The notes below the pieces were generated by a model. It was not told the DNA's origin and ran no database searches. It saw only the letters and a program-made list of their open reading frames with translations. Below are positions 15,135 through 28,284 of a DNA stretch of 64,000 nt, in pieces. The DNA is from an uncultured Gammaproteobacteria bacterium (GTDB lineage: Bacteria; Patescibacteriota; Microgenomatia; UBA10105; UBA927), in assembly GCA_964448085.1 (NCBI GenBank), contig CAYUUX010000002.1:30519-94518 (forward strand). The letters are read 5' to 3'. The position numbers and the translations under genes are program-made. Each line of letters opens with the position of its first letter. The stretch's first letter is position 1.

Positions 15135-16052
15135 TTGACAGAGCGCCATGGGAACGGTATTGTCTTTGCTATGCGCATTCCACACCATGTATTTGCCCCT
15201 TCTACTTCTGGTTATCCCATCATTGGTTTTCAATCGAAAGAAACACGTGCGCTTACCGTGGGGTATATTCATAAACGGGGGAAAAAGGAAACGTTTATTC
15301 CCTGTCGGGAGCATTTTGGAGCCCTTCGTGAGGAGGACGCGTTTTCGGCAACCGTACAATCGTTATCCCTTTCTCCCATTCAAAAAATGTTACACGCTCA
15401 CGATCCCTATACCATCTCGACCATAACTATTTTACGGGAAACGGTTGCGTGTCGGCTTTCAAGTGCGCTTTTTTATGCAGGTATACCCGCGCACTACGGG
15501 GACTGTTTTATTGGAGCAAATCATGTTAAGTCTGCAACAAGCATCACAACATCATATGCGTATGAAAATACTGAAGGATTGTGCACAGATGGGTGTTGGG
15601 TTATTGCTGATAGCATTGCCTCGGGCAAAAATTTAATAGCCACCCTTCGTTCTTTATTAGGAAAATATCATCCCAAAGAACTTATTTTTATTGTTCCCAT
15701 CGGTAATCGGTGGGGCATTAATGAAGTCAGTAGGGTTGTTGCAGACTATTCCGTACCCACTACGTTTGTTGTTTGGGGAGCGTTGTTTGGTTTAAATCCG
15801 GAAAATCACTACGACGAACCATGGGGGCTTCCAGACTGTGAACCTATTGATAAACGAGACCAACAAACGTTTGTTTCTATGTATTCTCCAACCCTATGTG
15901 TTGGTGGAGATTTTGGTAACGATTACTATTGTGTGGCGTTGGCAAAGAACTTATATAAAAAACAACTTGCAGATCTGCATATAACACCCAACATTCCCAC
16001 CGCAAAATTTATCCGATCGGTATACGCTTCAGAAGAAATCCTCACACGATAA
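15135..16052 (+). CDS. hypothetical protein with a possible phosphoribosyltransferase-like (PRTase) fold
   Basis: 305 aa with no clear family. The segment CWVIADSIASGKNLIATL resembles the PRPP-binding loop pattern (hydrophobic-D-x-hydrophobic-x-S/T-G) of type I PRTases. This is inference only. Confidence 0.3.
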   Translation: MTERHGNGIVFAMRIPHHVFAPSTSGYPIIGFQSKETRALTVGYIHKRGKKETFIPCREHFGALREEDAFSATVQSLSLSPIQKMLHAHDPYTISTITILRETVACRLSSALFYAGIPAHYGDCFIGANHVKSATSITTSYAYENTEGLCTDGCWVIADSIASGKNLIATLRSLLGKYHPKELIFIVPIGNRWGINEVSRVVADYSVPTTFVVWGALFGLNPENHYDEPWGLPDCEPIDKRDQQTFVSMYSPTLCVGGDFGNDYYCVALAKNLYKKQLADLHITPNIPTAKFIRSVYASEEILTR

Positions 16053-16056
16053 GCCG

Positions 16057-17454
16057 TTATCGGCTTTGGGATCCTAGAGGAAAGGTGTTTGTTTCAATAA
16101 ACAGTGGCCTTCCTTCTGTGTCGTCTACTGCCACTATCATTCCCTGAGATTCTTCTCCCATTATTTTTCTATATTGCAAATTGAAAACAAAGAGAAATTT
16201 TTTGCCGGTGAAATACTCTGCGGCATACCCAAACTGTCTGACTCCAGTGAATATGATCCGTTTTCCTAATTCCCCAAAATTAACATGGAGCCGGATCAAT
16301 TTTTCACTTTTCTCAACGTGTTCTGCTGATTCAACTTGCCCAACCCGCATTTCCACGTTGTACCAATCGTCAATTGTGATGGTTGTTTTTTTACTTGTAG
16401 GAACGGAGTAGGCATTAGTTATACCTGTCAAATTTTTAACCTCTTGTAACGTTGATTCTGCATATCTCATGGCTTGTTCTTTCCCACGAGAAAGAATCTC
16501 CTTTATATATTCGGGATGCTTCTGCATTTCCTTATATTGTTTTCGTGCCGGTGCAAAATGCTGTAGGAGCGATTGATATAAATATTCCTTTACTTCTATA
16601 TCCGCTATTTCTCCCCTCTTATATGCTTGTTTCATTTGCTGTACCTTTTCCTTATCACCAAAAAATTCCAGATATACAAAAACCATGTTTCCATCAATGT
16701 GACCGGGATCCGTTTTATGAATACGGGTTGGATCTGTATATGTTCCCATCACCTGTTTTTTGATGGTTTCTTCTGTTTCAAAAATGCTAATAATATTGCC
16801 TAAAGACTTACTCATTTTTCGTTTTCCATCGGTACCAAGTATTGTTGCAACGTTTTTTGAAATGAGTGGATCGGATAATTTAAAGCATGATGTGTTGTAG
16901 GTTCGGTTAAACAGTTGTGCAATATCTCTGGCAATTTCGACATGTTGTTTTTGATCTTTTCCTACCGGAACGAGGTCGGGTTTATATAAAAGAATGTCAG
17001 CCGCCATGAGAATTGGATAACTAAATAGACCGACGTTAATAGTATCCTCAGCGGTGTCTTTTTGGAGTTTATCCTTATATGCATGCGCCCGTTTTAACAA
17101 CCCAAGTGGAGTAAAATTATTGAGAATTGTTTGTAGTTCTGAATGGAGCCCCCCGATGTCGGATTGTCTAAAAAAGATAAGTCGATCGAATTCTTCTGGT
17201 TCCAAAAAACCTTTCAAGAGAGCGAGTTCGCTAAGTATCAATGTTTCTGTGTTCCTTTGTAATTTATCTTTATTCTGAACAGTTGTCAGTGCGTGATAGT
17301 CAGCCACAAAAAGAAAGCACTCATGTGTGTGTGCCATGTCAATAAATTGTTTGACTGCTCCTAGGTAGTTGCCGATATGGAGAGTGCCATCACCACTTGG
17401 TGTTATACCAGATAAAACTCGTTTCATAGTTATTCCTTTCATATATTGTATCAT
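16057..17454 (-). CDS. trpS: tryptophanyl-tRNA synthetase with C-terminal Trbp111/EMAPII-like tRNA-binding domain
   Basis: Class I core with TPSGDGTLHIGNYLGA (HIGH-type) and KMSKSLGN. About 110 extra C-terminal residues (VGQVESAEHV...LIRLHVNFGE...ESQGMIVAV) match the Myf/Trbp111 OB-fold tRNA-binding domain. Confidence 0.8.
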   Translation of the reverse strand: MIQYMKGITMKRVLSGITPSGDGTLHIGNYLGAVKQFIDMAHTHECFLFVADYHALTTVQNKDKLQRNTETLILSELALLKGFLEPEEFDRLIFFRQSDIGGLHSELQTILNNFTPLGLLKRAHAYKDKLQKDTAEDTINVGLFSYPILMAADILLYKPDLVPVGKDQKQHVEIARDIAQLFNRTYNTSCFKLSDPLISKNVATILGTDGKRKMSKSLGNIISIFETEETIKKQVMGTYTDPTRIHKTDPGHIDGNMVFVYLEFFGDKEKVQQMKQAYKRGEIADIEVKEYLYQSLLQHFAPARKQYKEMQKHPEYIKEILSRGKEQAMRYAESTLQEVKNLTGITNAYSVPTSKKTTITIDDWYNVEMRVGQVESAEHVEKSEKLIRLHVNFGELGKRIIFTGVRQFGYAAEYFTGKKFLFVFNLQYRKIMGEESQGMIVAVDDTEGRPLFIETNTFPLGSQSR

Positions 17455-17492: not shown

Positions 17493-18839
17493 CTATTGCA
17501 ATGAACCGTTCAAAAATTTTTCATACCCTCCGAGATCTAGCAAACCGTGTCCGGACAGATTAAAACAAATTACCTTTTTGTTCCCTTGCTTTCGAGCGCG
17601 AATAGCTTCATCAATTACTGCCTTGATCGCGTGTGCACTTTCTGGAGCCGGAATTATTCCCTCTGCTTTCATAAAACAATGCGCGGCTTCAAAAATTTCT
17701 TTTTGAGAATACGCACGAGCACGCGTAATTCCACGCGTGTTTAAGAATGACAAAATTGGTGCATTTCCATGGTATCGCAGCCCCCCAGCGTGAATTACGG
17801 CAGGAATGAACGATGCGCCCAGCGTCTGCATTTTAAGCAGCGGCGTTTGTTTTGCCGCGTCACCAAAATCATATTTGTATTCCCCTTTGGTCATTTTTGG
17901 ACAGGCACTGGATTCAACGAGTATGCAATCAAGACTTGTGCGTTCTCCTGAGATTTTTTTAATAATAAATGGTGCCATAAACCCAAACGCATTGCTTCCT
18001 CCACCAACACACCCAATCAACACATCTGGATATTCTCCAAGGTGTTTAAATTGTTCTTCTACCTCCTGTCCAATAATGGTTTGATGCATGAGTACGTGAT
18101 TTAATACGCTTCCCAAAGCATAACGTGCTGTTTTGTCGTCCCGAATTGTTTCCAGGGCCTCAGCTATGGCGATCCCAAGGCTTCCGGGATGCTGCGGACG
18201 TTCGTTTAACAGATGTTTTCCGAATGCCGTTTGATTTGAAGGACTTGCAAATACGTTTGCACCAAACAACTGCATGATCGTTTTTCTATACGGTTTTTGT
18301 TCATAGGAAGAACGGACCATAAATATGGAGCACCGTACATCAAAAAATTTACATGCTAGTGCTAACGCTGACCCCCATTGACCAGCGCCAGTTTCCGTAA
18401 TGAGTCGTTTAACACCTTCTTGTTTGTTGTAATACGCTTGAGGAATTGCCGTATTGATCTTATGGCTTCCAGAGATGGTTGCGCCTTCATTTTTAAAATA
18501 GATATGCGCAGGGGTTTGGAGCACCTGTTCCAGACGGGTTGCACGGACAAGTGGCGTTGGTCGAAATGTCATATAGATGTTTCTGACTGCATTGGGAATT
18601 TCAACTTTTTCCTCAAGCGTTAATTCTTGTTTAGCGATTTCCTTTGGGAAAAGCCCACACAGATCCTTCATGGTTATGGGTTTGTTTGTTGCCGGATTGA
18701 GATGCGGATCTGGCAAACTCCCCACATATTTTTTGAGGTAATAGTTTATATTGAGATAGTGTGTTGGTGTTTGCACCGAACATTGATTTCCTTTTGTCAT
18801 AGTAGATCCTTTATAAAAATTTTTTGTACACATTGACAT
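17493..18839 (-). CDS. trpB: tryptophan synthase beta chain-like protein, TrpB2 (long) type
   Basis: 448 aa. PLP lysine motif ISGSHKINTAI and GCVGGGSNAFGFMAPF. The length fits the archaeal-like TrpB2 subfamily. No trpA is adjacent. Confidence 0.75.
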   Translation of the reverse strand: MSMCTKNFYKGSTMTKGNQCSVQTPTHYLNINYYLKKYVGSLPDPHLNPATNKPITMKDLCGLFPKEIAKQELTLEEKVEIPNAVRNIYMTFRPTPLVRATRLEQVLQTPAHIYFKNEGATISGSHKINTAIPQAYYNKQEGVKRLITETGAGQWGSALALACKFFDVRCSIFMVRSSYEQKPYRKTIMQLFGANVFASPSNQTAFGKHLLNERPQHPGSLGIAIAEALETIRDDKTARYALGSVLNHVLMHQTIIGQEVEEQFKHLGEYPDVLIGCVGGGSNAFGFMAPFIIKKISGERTSLDCILVESSACPKMTKGEYKYDFGDAAKQTPLLKMQTLGASFIPAVIHAGGLRYHGNAPILSFLNTRGITRARAYSQKEIFEAAHCFMKAEGIIPAPESAHAIKAVIDEAIRARKQGNKKVICFNLSGHGLLDLGGYEKFLNGSLQ

Positions 18840-18892: not shown

Positions 18893-18965
18893 GGCAGGAG
18901 CATCAGGATTTGAACCTGAAATGAGGATTTTGGAGATCCCCGTGATACCGTTTCACTATGCTCCT
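18893..18965 (-). tRNA. tRNA-Trp (anticodon CCA)
   Basis: Hand-folded cloverleaf on the minus strand: 7-bp acceptor AGGAGCA/TGCTCCT, D-loop with GG, anticodon loop CTCCAAA, T-arm TCAGG-TTCAAAT-CCTGA, discriminator G. CC is encoded, the terminal A is not. Confidence 0.8.
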
Positions 18966-18977
18966 AAACGACAAAAA

Positions 18978-19015
18978 CCCGTACAGAACACCAAGATATT
19001 GTTGTTCTGTACGGG
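18978..19015. terminator. perfect 13-bp stem / 12-nt loop hairpin flanked by A-run and T-run (bidirectional intrinsic-terminator-like)
   Basis: cccgtacagaaca-[ccaagatattgt]-tgttctgtacggg, then cctttattt on plus and tttttgt on minus. Lies 12 nt upstream of the tRNA-Trp 5' end. Confidence 0.5.
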
Positions 19016-19236
19016 CCTTTATTTGAGATTCGGCTGTGCCACCGTACGCTTCCCTTTCGGGACTTTTCTTGACGCACTCCGTTTTTACGACATGCGTTCC
19101 TGACTTTTACGGTTTCGGCTCCGTACCTGATTGGGGTCAGCTTCCCGGTTCCATCCTTCCGGATCAGCGCTTTCTAAACATACATAGTATACCATACGCT
19201 GTCCAGCGGTAGAGCTATAGTAGGAAACTATTGTTA

Positions 19237-27545: not shown

Positions 27546-27563
27546 GCAGTATCGTTGTATATG

Positions 27564-27633
27564 TTGCGGGGCCAGGAATCGCACCTGGTCTAGAAGATTA
27601 TGAGCCTTCTGTGCAACTTTACACTACCCCGCG
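27564..27633 (-). tRNA. tRNA with CAT anticodon (Met/fMet/Ile2), atypical architecture
   Basis: Minus-strand cloverleaf: acceptor CGCGGGG/CCCCGC with a C1-A72 mismatch, anticodon arm GAAGG-CTCATAA-TCTTC (U33, A37), T-arm CCAGG-TGCGATT-CCTGG. Only 70 nt. The D-loop AAAGTT lacks G18G19. CCA is not encoded. Confidence 0.55.
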
Positions 27634-28209: not shown

Positions 28210-28284
28210 TGGTGCCAGCGGCGGGATTCGGACCTGCGACCCACGCCTTATGAAGACGCTGCTCTACCACTGAGCTACGCTGGC
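28210..28284 (-). tRNA. tRNA-Met (anticodon CAT), canonical elongator-type
   Basis: Acceptor GCCAGCG/CGCTGGC, D-arm GCTC-AGTGGTA-GAGC, anticodon loop TTCATAA, T-arm GCAGG-TTCGAAT-CCTGC, discriminator A, CCA encoded. Confidence 0.85.

Follow-up and report, generated by a model that had tools for sequence, protein, structure and literature searches.

A Trbp111-type tRNA-binding domain fused to tryptophanyl-tRNA synthetase in a Gottesmanbacteria-like lineage of uncultured bacteria

Here we describe the tryptophanyl-tRNA synthetase (TrpRS) gene, trpS, in a 64,000-nucleotide stretch of contig CAYUUX010000002.1 (hereafter the window), the product of which continues beyond its synthetase core into a flexible linker and a tRNA-binding oligonucleotide-binding (OB) domain of the type known from the free-standing protein Trbp111. 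The gene lies on the minus strand, behind a T-box-like leader, a tRNA-Trp gene and a gene for a TrpB2-type enzyme (Table 1). Appended modules of the Trbp111 or EMAPII kind are a textbook aid to tRNA capture by methionyl- (MetRS), phenylalanyl- (PheRS) and tyrosyl-tRNA synthetase (TyrRS). In the window and its closest relatives such a module is joined to TrpRS, and in other related uncultured bacteria the same two parts are encoded by separate genes.

Table 1 Features of the trpS locus, read along the minus strand
Feature	Position	Strand	Remarks
T-box-like leader	18973..19172	minus	Upstream of tRNA-Trp, trpB2 and trpS
Kink-turn (K-turn) and very short Stem I (4-5 bp)	19172..19139	minus	UGG in terminal loop at 19153..19151
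T-box core GGUGGCACAGCC	19043..19032	minus	Forms antiterminator with 7-nt UGGCACA bulge
Antiterminator	19047..19009	minus	GUACGG-UGGCACA-GCC...GGC-CCGUAC; -8.9 kcal/mol
Competing terminator and U tract	19015..18973	minus	-23.6 kcal/mol; z -7.3
tRNA-Trp (CCA)	18893..18965	minus	Between leader and trpB2; ARAGORN; Rfam tRNA 60.1 bits
TrpB-like pyridoxal phosphate enzyme (TrpB2 type)	17493..18839	minus	Directly upstream of trpS; NF009057 639 bits, TIGR01415 594 (cutoff 519); PALP domain
trpS reading frame (TrpRS-linker-OB fusion)	16057..17454	minus	465 amino acids as longest open reading frame; Pfam and NCBIfam
TrpRS core (Rossmann catalytic and helical anticodon-binding domain)	16420..17427	minus	Residues 10-345; PF00579, TIGR00233
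Flexible linker TNAYSVPTSKKTTIT	16375..16419	minus	Residues ~346-360, ~15 residues; low pLDDT, variable length
Trbp111-type tRNA-binding OB domain	16060..16374	minus	Residues 361-465, with N- and C-terminal flanks
L12-loop motif S383-E384-K385	16300..16308	minus	Equivalent to Trbp111 E32/K33; alignment to 1PYB
L45-loop motif Q427-Y-R429-K-I431-M432-G-E-E-S436-Q-G-M439	16138..16176	minus	A76/C75 pocket; equivalent to Trbp111 K73-P-R75-K-I77-F78-...-S82-...-M85

A bacterial-type TrpRS with a C-terminal OB domain

The trpS open reading frame (ORF) is uninterrupted along its full length. Its true start is probably M10, the ATG at 17427, which would give a protein of 456 amino acids, because an AAGGA Shine-Dalgarno-like sequence lies upstream of this codon and most homologues begin with MKR; residue numbers used here follow the 465-residue ORF and not the 456-residue form. 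The core matches the Pfam family tRNA-synt_1b (PF00579) over residues 12-300 (E 5.5e-58) and scores 271.9 bits against the NCBIfam trpS equivalog TIGR00233, the cutoff for which is 176.75, so that it ranks as a bacterial-type TrpRS. It carries the motifs TLHIGN (a HIGN variant of HIGH), KMSKS and VPVGKDQKQH (the GxDQ motif). A predicted model of the 456-residue protein (mean pLDDT 81.6) was matched by Foldseek to some 50 solved bacterial TrpRS chains, with TM-scores relative to the target (TMt) of 0.77-0.88, and to no other type of protein. The matched chains comprise 309-342 residues, and all of them stop short of the extra domain.

What follows the core had been taken, in an earlier note made from the letters alone, for a Myf/Trbp111-type tRNA-binding OB domain. 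Pfam tRNA_bind (PF01588) indeed covers residues 369-457 (window 16084..16350), spanning positions 1-90 of the 96 in the profile, with an E-value of 7.5e-16 and 58.4 bits against a gathering score of 27, well beyond chance; the range originally assigned to the tail, 16057..16420, is that of residues 346-465 and the stop codon, i.e. of linker and domain together. Against PDB sequences the tail aligns over ~100 residues with Aquifex aeolicus Trbp111 and the MetRS beta subunit (E 3e-18 to 1e-17; 1e-17 for Trbp111). Among NCBIfam models, those for metG_C_term and MetRS score highest (85-95 bits; metG_C_term 85), followed by CsaA (29-33) and PheT (17).

Since the full-length model matched just TrpRS chains in the PDB, the domain was also modelled by itself. 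The resulting AlphaFold prediction (pLDDT 85.8) covers whole targets in Foldseek comparisons with 2cwp, 8vtz, 1mkh and 5h34 (TM-scores relative to query and target, TMq/TMt, of 0.80/0.88, 0.70/0.75, 0.76/0.86 and 0.77/0.82, respectively); the structures matched in this way include the C-terminal domains of Nanoarchaeum equitans and Pyrococcus abyssi MetRS (MetRS-C), CsaA and YgjH. The tail also has the flanks by which Trbp111 dimerizes, and these are modelled with high confidence. On the predicted fold, the tail is a five-stranded OB barrel of the ~110-residue dimeric Trbp111/MetRS-C/CsaA class and not of the EMAPII class, because EMAPII structures align with the model in the OB core only, over 80-104 columns and with a TMt of 0.42-0.50. 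In EMAPII-class proteins a pseudo-dimer subdomain of ~60 residues comes after the OB core, whereas the chain here stops ~105 residues past the linker. The original label "Trbp111/EMAPII-type" thus holds in its first half and has to be given up in its second. A tblastn search across the 64-kb window found neither a second OB domain nor a YbaK-like editing domain.

The linker stands apart from both of the domains that it joins. In the 456-residue model it is poorly predicted, with pLDDT below 50 at residues 342-347, and linker length differs among 44 homologues. Mean identity of these homologues to the window sequence is 68% in the core, 58% in the OB domain and 38% in the linker; the difference between the latter two indicates that the OB domain is under constraint. 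The gene product is most likely a functional bacterial TrpRS with a complete Trbp111-type OB module, as far as its sequence can tell.

Relation to known tRNA-binding modules

Two known systems come closest to this arrangement. Aquifex aeolicus Trbp111 (1PYB, 8VTZ, 8VU0) is ~43% identical to the window domain over ~100 residues and shares its fold, length class, flanks and pocket residues for the CA end of tRNA. It is free-standing, whereas the window module is covalently joined to TrpRS, and it has no known cellular partner, whereas that of the window module is defined by fusion and operon. The C-terminal domain of bacterial and archaeal MetRS (metG_C_term; 1MKH, 5H34; the P. horikoshii MetRS-related 2CWP) gives the best NCBIfam scores and, with 2cwp, the best fold match. 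MetRS also has the same architecture, in which a class I core is followed by a flexible linker and a dimeric OB domain of ~110 amino acids that acts as a cis-acting tRNA cofactor. The host differs, in that TrpRS dimerizes obligately by way of the catalytic domain and has no need of the OB module for this.

The EMAPII-type domains of eukaryotic TyrRS-C, AIMP1/p43 and Arc1p share the OB core and the loops that bind the tRNA 3' end, and they too are linked to synthetases, among them the one most closely related to TrpRS, namely TyrRS. They differ in being monomeric and ~165-175 residues long, with the extra pseudo-dimer subdomain, while the window domain (~105 residues) ends as Trbp111 does. CsaA and YgjH, the E. 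coli homologue of Trbp111, have the same fold and size class as the window domain, but their sequence scores are much weaker (26-38 bits).

A survey published in 2024 of aminoacyl-tRNA synthetase fusions with this fold names MetRS, PheRS and TyrRS and not TrpRS (PMC11286949). In the literature that we searched, coverage of which is incomplete, no description was found of a TrpRS with a Trbp111 domain or of synthetase domain architecture in the candidate phyla radiation (CPR). The arrangement is of a well-known kind, a class I synthetase with a Trbp111-type OB domain as in MetRS, on a host, TrpRS, that is new at least relative to that list and to the literature searched. Both Pfam domains are already tagged on such proteins by database pipelines, so that the architecture is visible in databases and apparently not described in print.

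Conservation of the pocket for the 3'-terminal CA

The 2024 co-crystal of Trbp111 with tRNA established that the fold holds the 3'-terminal C75-A76 and not the tRNA elbow (PMC11286949). Co-crystal and mutagenesis together identified contacts at E32/K33, K73 (via its carbonyl), R75, I77, F78, S82 and M85; E32/K33 hold C75, and the R75A exchange almost abolishes binding (PMC11286949). The window equivalents lie in two loops (Table 1): E384/K385 stand for E32/K33, R429 for R75, I431 for I77, S436 for S82 and M439 for M85, and Trbp111 K73, P74 and F78 are replaced by Gln (Q427), Tyr and Met (M432).

Among the 44 homologues S383, K385, S436, G438 and M439 are invariant, the E384 position is conserved as E or D, and the R429 position is R in 42 and K in the other two. 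With its contact positions invariant or nearly so, the CA pocket is preserved; the residues that characterize the PF01588/Trbp111 class are in place, F78 being conservatively exchanged for Met or Leu.

Fused homologues in candidate-phylum bacteria

An identical 465-residue protein is encoded by contigs of two JGI metagenome samples, and PF00579 and PF01588 are both present in all 120 of the best homologue clusters (60-100% identity), the named sources of which are Candidatus Gottesmanbacteria or Microgenomates. Together with the continuous ORF, these observations bear out that the domain is part of the TrpRS chain and not the product of a frameshift. At E <= 1e-30, 968 proteins match in a library of 1.84 billion representatives of clusters formed at 50% identity. 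The OB domain occurs in nine of the best 150 TrpRS representatives (the full-length P0121, P0124, P0127, P0134, P0146 and P0179, and three fragments), one of which is labelled "Patescibacteria group".

When one genome per GTDB species was scanned, relatives of 57-72% identity were confined to records labelled Gottesmanbacteria, Microgenomates, Woesebacteria or Patescibacteria and a few binchicken third-party annotation (TPA) records labelled Gammaproteobacteria, the taxonomy of relatives being taken from record titles. The binchicken TPA records at L007, L010, L014, L018, L024 and L025 are titled uncultured Gammaproteobacteria or Pseudomonadales, and their trpS loci are Gottesmanbacteria-like; these labels look mistaken. 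The plain TrpRS of Peregrinibacteria, Gracilibacteria and other phyla, at 40-50% identity, carry no OB domain, and in the PDB comparison no solved TrpRS structure has one. To judge from these sequence comparisons, the OB fusion is rare among TrpRS overall and typical of a Gottesmanbacteria-like CPR lineage. The view that the domain is atypical on a bacterial TrpRS is accordingly right for the enzyme family at large, including its solved structures and the published list, and wrong within the lineage itself, where fusion is the rule.

Sister TrpRS proteins carry further domains. One or two N-terminal PF04073 (YbaK-type) domains, a PF03483 (PheRS-type B3_4) domain, or both kinds, occur with or without the C-terminal OB domain in P0021, P0032, P0037, P0094, P0122, P0126, P0128 and P0129, and one or two N-terminal PF04073 domains are added to the TrpRS-OB chain in 25 of the 120 best homologue clusters. 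We know of no editing-type domains on bacterial TrpRS.

Separate trpS and trbp genes in related bacteria

Fused and split states were distinguished by ORF continuity, in GTDB and metagenome loci alike; all relatives are metagenome-assembled, and some split states may be assembly errors. TrpRS and OB domain form one ORF in 17 of the 23 loci in which both parts were seen (the 17 include the window and L001 and L002, which carry the same gene) and lie on separate ORFs in six GTDB loci. At L016 and L018, for example, TrpRS stops at the linker start (..YSFFKY), and the same strand encodes, 1.0-1.6 kb downstream, a PF01588 protein of 111-112 amino acids.

The picture extends to more distant enzymes in metagenome loci that were retrieved by means of the leader motif. 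In 13 of them, with TrpRS cores 31-45% identical, a separate PF01588 gene of 106-123 amino acids (hereafter trbp) lies downstream of trpS; the gap from the trpS stop is -20 to +51 nt in 12, often with overlapping stop and start codons, and 689 nt in L102. The fused form was met in only three of the loci recovered in this way, all with cores 65-75% identical. The stand-alone OB proteins begin precisely at the end of the fusion linker.

Because split pairs and fused forms both occur across related uncultured bacteria, trpS-trbp is, on the sequences at hand, a recurrent gene pair, of which the window presents the fused state. The fusion would most simply, and most likely, have arisen when trpS lost the stop codon that separated it from an adjacent and translationally coupled trbp gene. 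A neighbour-joining tree of TrpRS cores, too crude to rely on, scatters the OB-bearing enzymes, and these scattered positions hint at several independent fusion events, with which they would be compatible. Derivation of the domain from MetRS was considered as well and set aside: NCBIfam scores favour MetRS-C, but a stand-alone trbp gene beside trpS is the more direct source.

A tryptophan T-box-like leader and the trpS operon

The leader upstream of the operon combines a very short Stem I with an antiterminator and a competing terminator (Table 1). The UGGC of the bulge is complementary to the GCCA end (G73-CCA) of tRNA-Trp. As expected of a T-box antiterminator, the 7-nt bulge is of the UGGN kind, it can pair with an NCCA end, and its helix and the terminator are mutually exclusive; as expected of a Stem I specifier, the terminal loop presents UGG, the codon of the regulated amino acid.

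The Rfam T-box family RF00230 matched neither the window nor any of 21 related loci, whether hits were judged by the gathering score or by E <= 10. The Rfam "trpB ncRNA motif", a motif of Firmicutes and Fusobacteria, scored 17-19 bits on the leader against a gathering score of 59 and was rejected as a chance hairpin with a U tract. A promoter and terminator scan missed the leader terminator, the loop of which exceeds the limit of the scanner, and is uninformative here.

A metagenome search pattern built from the antiterminator only, with Stem I left unconstrained, recovered 120 loci. At 50 of them trpS, trpB or tRNA-Trp lies downstream on the same strand (35 of the 66 loci for which 1.5 kb or more of downstream sequence is available); other downstream genes include trpE, a trpD-like gene, DUF3182 and an Asp/Glu racemase gene. 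Of the 50 Trp-context loci, 42 form all four of the helix A1 pairs left free by the pattern, and 48 have C, which pairs with G73, as the N of UGGN. In 30 related leaders Stem I is 98.1% paired, with two-sided changes in six of its seven pairs and an invariant UGG, and its covariation score was reached by none of 500 shuffles. Six minimal leaders upstream of trpS (L100, L102, L128, L192, L202 and L203) consist of Stem I, ~20-30 nt and then the antiterminator, without the intervening hairpins of the window.

T-boxes with a very short Stem I are known from actinobacterial ileS leaders, in which a K-turn at the base of Stem I, a specifier in the terminal loop, a 7-nt UGGN bulge and competition with a terminator are found likewise. 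Unlike these, the present leader precedes a tRNA gene, tRNA-Trp, as well as trpB2 and trpS, and some members of its family have nothing between Stem I and the antiterminator. In the literature searched, coverage of which is again incomplete, no paper on T-boxes in candidate phyla was found. On present sequence evidence we regard the leader as T-box-like, and as a candidate for an unannotated Trp-specific T-box variant.

The order of leader, tRNA-Trp, an optional trpB2 or other gene, and trpS is repeated in relatives, and tRNA-Trp occupies the same position in L003, L005 and L093, so that the tRNA, its own synthetase and the TrpB2-type enzyme appear to share one transcript. A1-U72, G5-C68, A9, G73 and a CCA anticodon are identity elements of bacterial tRNA-Trp. 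All of them are found in the tRNA-Trp encoded 1.4 kb upstream of trpS, and because of this canonical set there is no sign of an unusual substrate; the earlier idea that the OB domain compensates for an unusual tRNA therefore finds no support in the neighbouring gene.

Discussion

The reading that we favour, and hold to be probable with moderate confidence, is that the OB domain acts in cis to capture tRNA 3' ends and lowers the Michaelis constant (Km) of the synthetase for tRNA, and that the fusion was born of a coupled trpS-trbp pair. Homology with Trbp111 and the C-terminal domain of MetRS suggests that the module binds the single-stranded 3'-terminal CA of mature tRNA, whatever the identity of the tRNA. 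Once tethered to the synthetase, it would increase the concentration of tRNA nearby and reduce Km for tRNA-Trp, an effect reported for fusions of such a domain in published work as cited in PMC11286949, and the 3' end would be passed on to the active site, much as has been suggested for MetRS-type fusions, specificity remaining with the TrpRS core. By analogy with MetRS it is plausible that the module compensates for a weak tRNA affinity of TrpRS, as the earlier note had proposed. The two OB copies of a TrpRS dimer would probably pair as one Trbp111-like dimer, because TrpRS is dimeric and the module keeps the dimer-forming flanks of Trbp111.

Several observations weigh against this capture function. 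Binding of the very CCA end that is needed by the active site could inhibit rather than help. The equivalent of F78, which stacks on C75 in Trbp111, is Met or Leu here, and that of K73 is Q in the window protein and either A or E among its relatives, a point softened by the contact of K73 being through its backbone. Moreover, L015, with a core 63% identical, has no OB gene within 3.5 kb, and none is present in the sequence covered at about 10 of the 23 trpS loci linked to a T-box, from which it follows that the OB module is dispensable in some close relatives.

An alternative, which we consider unlikely, is that the module is a dimerization or stability clamp holding together a weak TrpRS dimer, as has been proposed for the MetRS C-terminal domain, with tRNA binding secondary. 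The flanks that make the Trbp111 dimer very stable are present and confidently modelled, and the same interface is credited with the dimerization of some MetRS; however, the CA-binding residues are no less conserved than other parts of the domain, a pattern not required of a pure clamp, the module also exists as a separate protein in split loci, and bacterial TrpRS already dimerizes through the catalytic domain.

A wider role, which goes beyond capture and which we put forward as doubtful, would make the Trbp111 module a dedicated partner of TrpRS across candidate-phylum bacteria, fused or translationally coupled and co-regulated by the Trp T-box, that holds the CCA end of tRNA-Trp for handover between the synthetic site and the YbaK- or B3_4-type editing modules found on sister TrpRS, or protects Trp-tRNA. 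If true, it would imply post-transfer quality control of tryptophan charging, which to our knowledge is known for no TrpRS, and would provide a physiological role for free-standing Trbp111.

It is improbable, in our estimate, that the OB domain handles aminoacyl-tRNA, by deacylating mischarged tRNA, by shielding or handing off Trp-tRNA, or by shuttling the CCA end to editing domains. In favour of such a function, the OB folds of Arc1p and Tb MCP1 deacylate Ala-tRNA (PMC12021450), Trbp111 tolerates 3' adducts, and sister TrpRS carry PF04073, in 25 of the 120 clusters on the same TrpRS-OB chain, or PF03483 B3_4. The residues for deacylation, however, are missing: the MCP1 triad K326, R331 and S335, of which the first two correspond to the K73 and F78 positions of Trbp111, reads Q427, M432 and S436 in the window (family consensus A, M, S), so that only the Ser is kept and the K and R of the Arc1p/MCP1 deacylase are absent. 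Nor does the window protein have an editing domain, or the 64 kb a YbaK-like sequence, and TrpRS is not known to require editing.

The possibility that the tail is a CsaA-like chaperone module unrelated to tRNA is very remote. CsaA, which has been described as a protein-export chaperone, is among the fold matches (TMq ~0.75) and its NCBIfam models do score, if weakly (29-33 bits), but Trbp111/MetRS-C sequences score far higher (68-85 bits, against 26-33 for CsaA), the residues of the pocket for the tRNA CA end are conserved, and the domain is both attached to a tRNA synthetase and co-regulated by a tRNA-sensing leader. An artefactual fusion of trpS to a neighbouring trbp gene by frameshift or misassembly, to which the split pairs with overlapping stop and start codons, where a one-base error could fuse the genes, and the GTDB locus L021, which resembles a frameshifted copy, might lend some colour, is refuted as far as sequence data allow by the continuity of the fused ORF in the window and in most loci with both parts, by the recurrence of the same protein in two samples and of fused clusters in many assemblies, and by a conserved linker region in place of an intergenic gap.

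Mechanistically, capture of the tRNA 3' end would be an ordinary pairing of two known parts, and the expected chemistry of the enzyme is unchanged by it. The occurrence of one pairing both as a fusion and as a coupled operon amounts to a "Rosetta stone" argument for joint function, and it offers a testable partner for free-standing Trbp111-type proteins, the cellular role of which is still under debate after binding to the 3' end, and not the elbow, was found in 2024. The architectures assembled here suggest that in these bacteria with reduced genomes TrpRS is a hotspot at which domains for tRNA handling (OB, YbaK-type and B3_4) have been added.

Other features of the locus and its relatives

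In the interval between trpS and ftsH, an ORF of ~293-305 amino acids at 15135..16052 on the plus strand is convergent with trpS and has no Pfam match; it is conserved at this place in L003, L004 and L005. Two tRNA-Met (CAT) genes lie ~600 nt apart on the minus strand of the window, at 27563..27633 and 28210..28284. In many related loci a tRNA-Met gene is located ~300 nt upstream of the Trp leader, which is not the case in the window.

A gene for a PF01177 Asp/Glu/hydantoin racemase recurs right behind the Trp leader, at 1433..2152 in L093, where it is placed between tRNA-Trp and trpS, and among the downstream ORFs of L137 and L158. Matches to group I introns (RF00028, 56-76 bits) were detected beside tRNA-like sequence near the trpS leaders of three relatives (L004 3526..3733, L144 4001..4224 and L191 5920..6110), and the intron of L004 appears to interrupt the tRNA gene preceding the leader.

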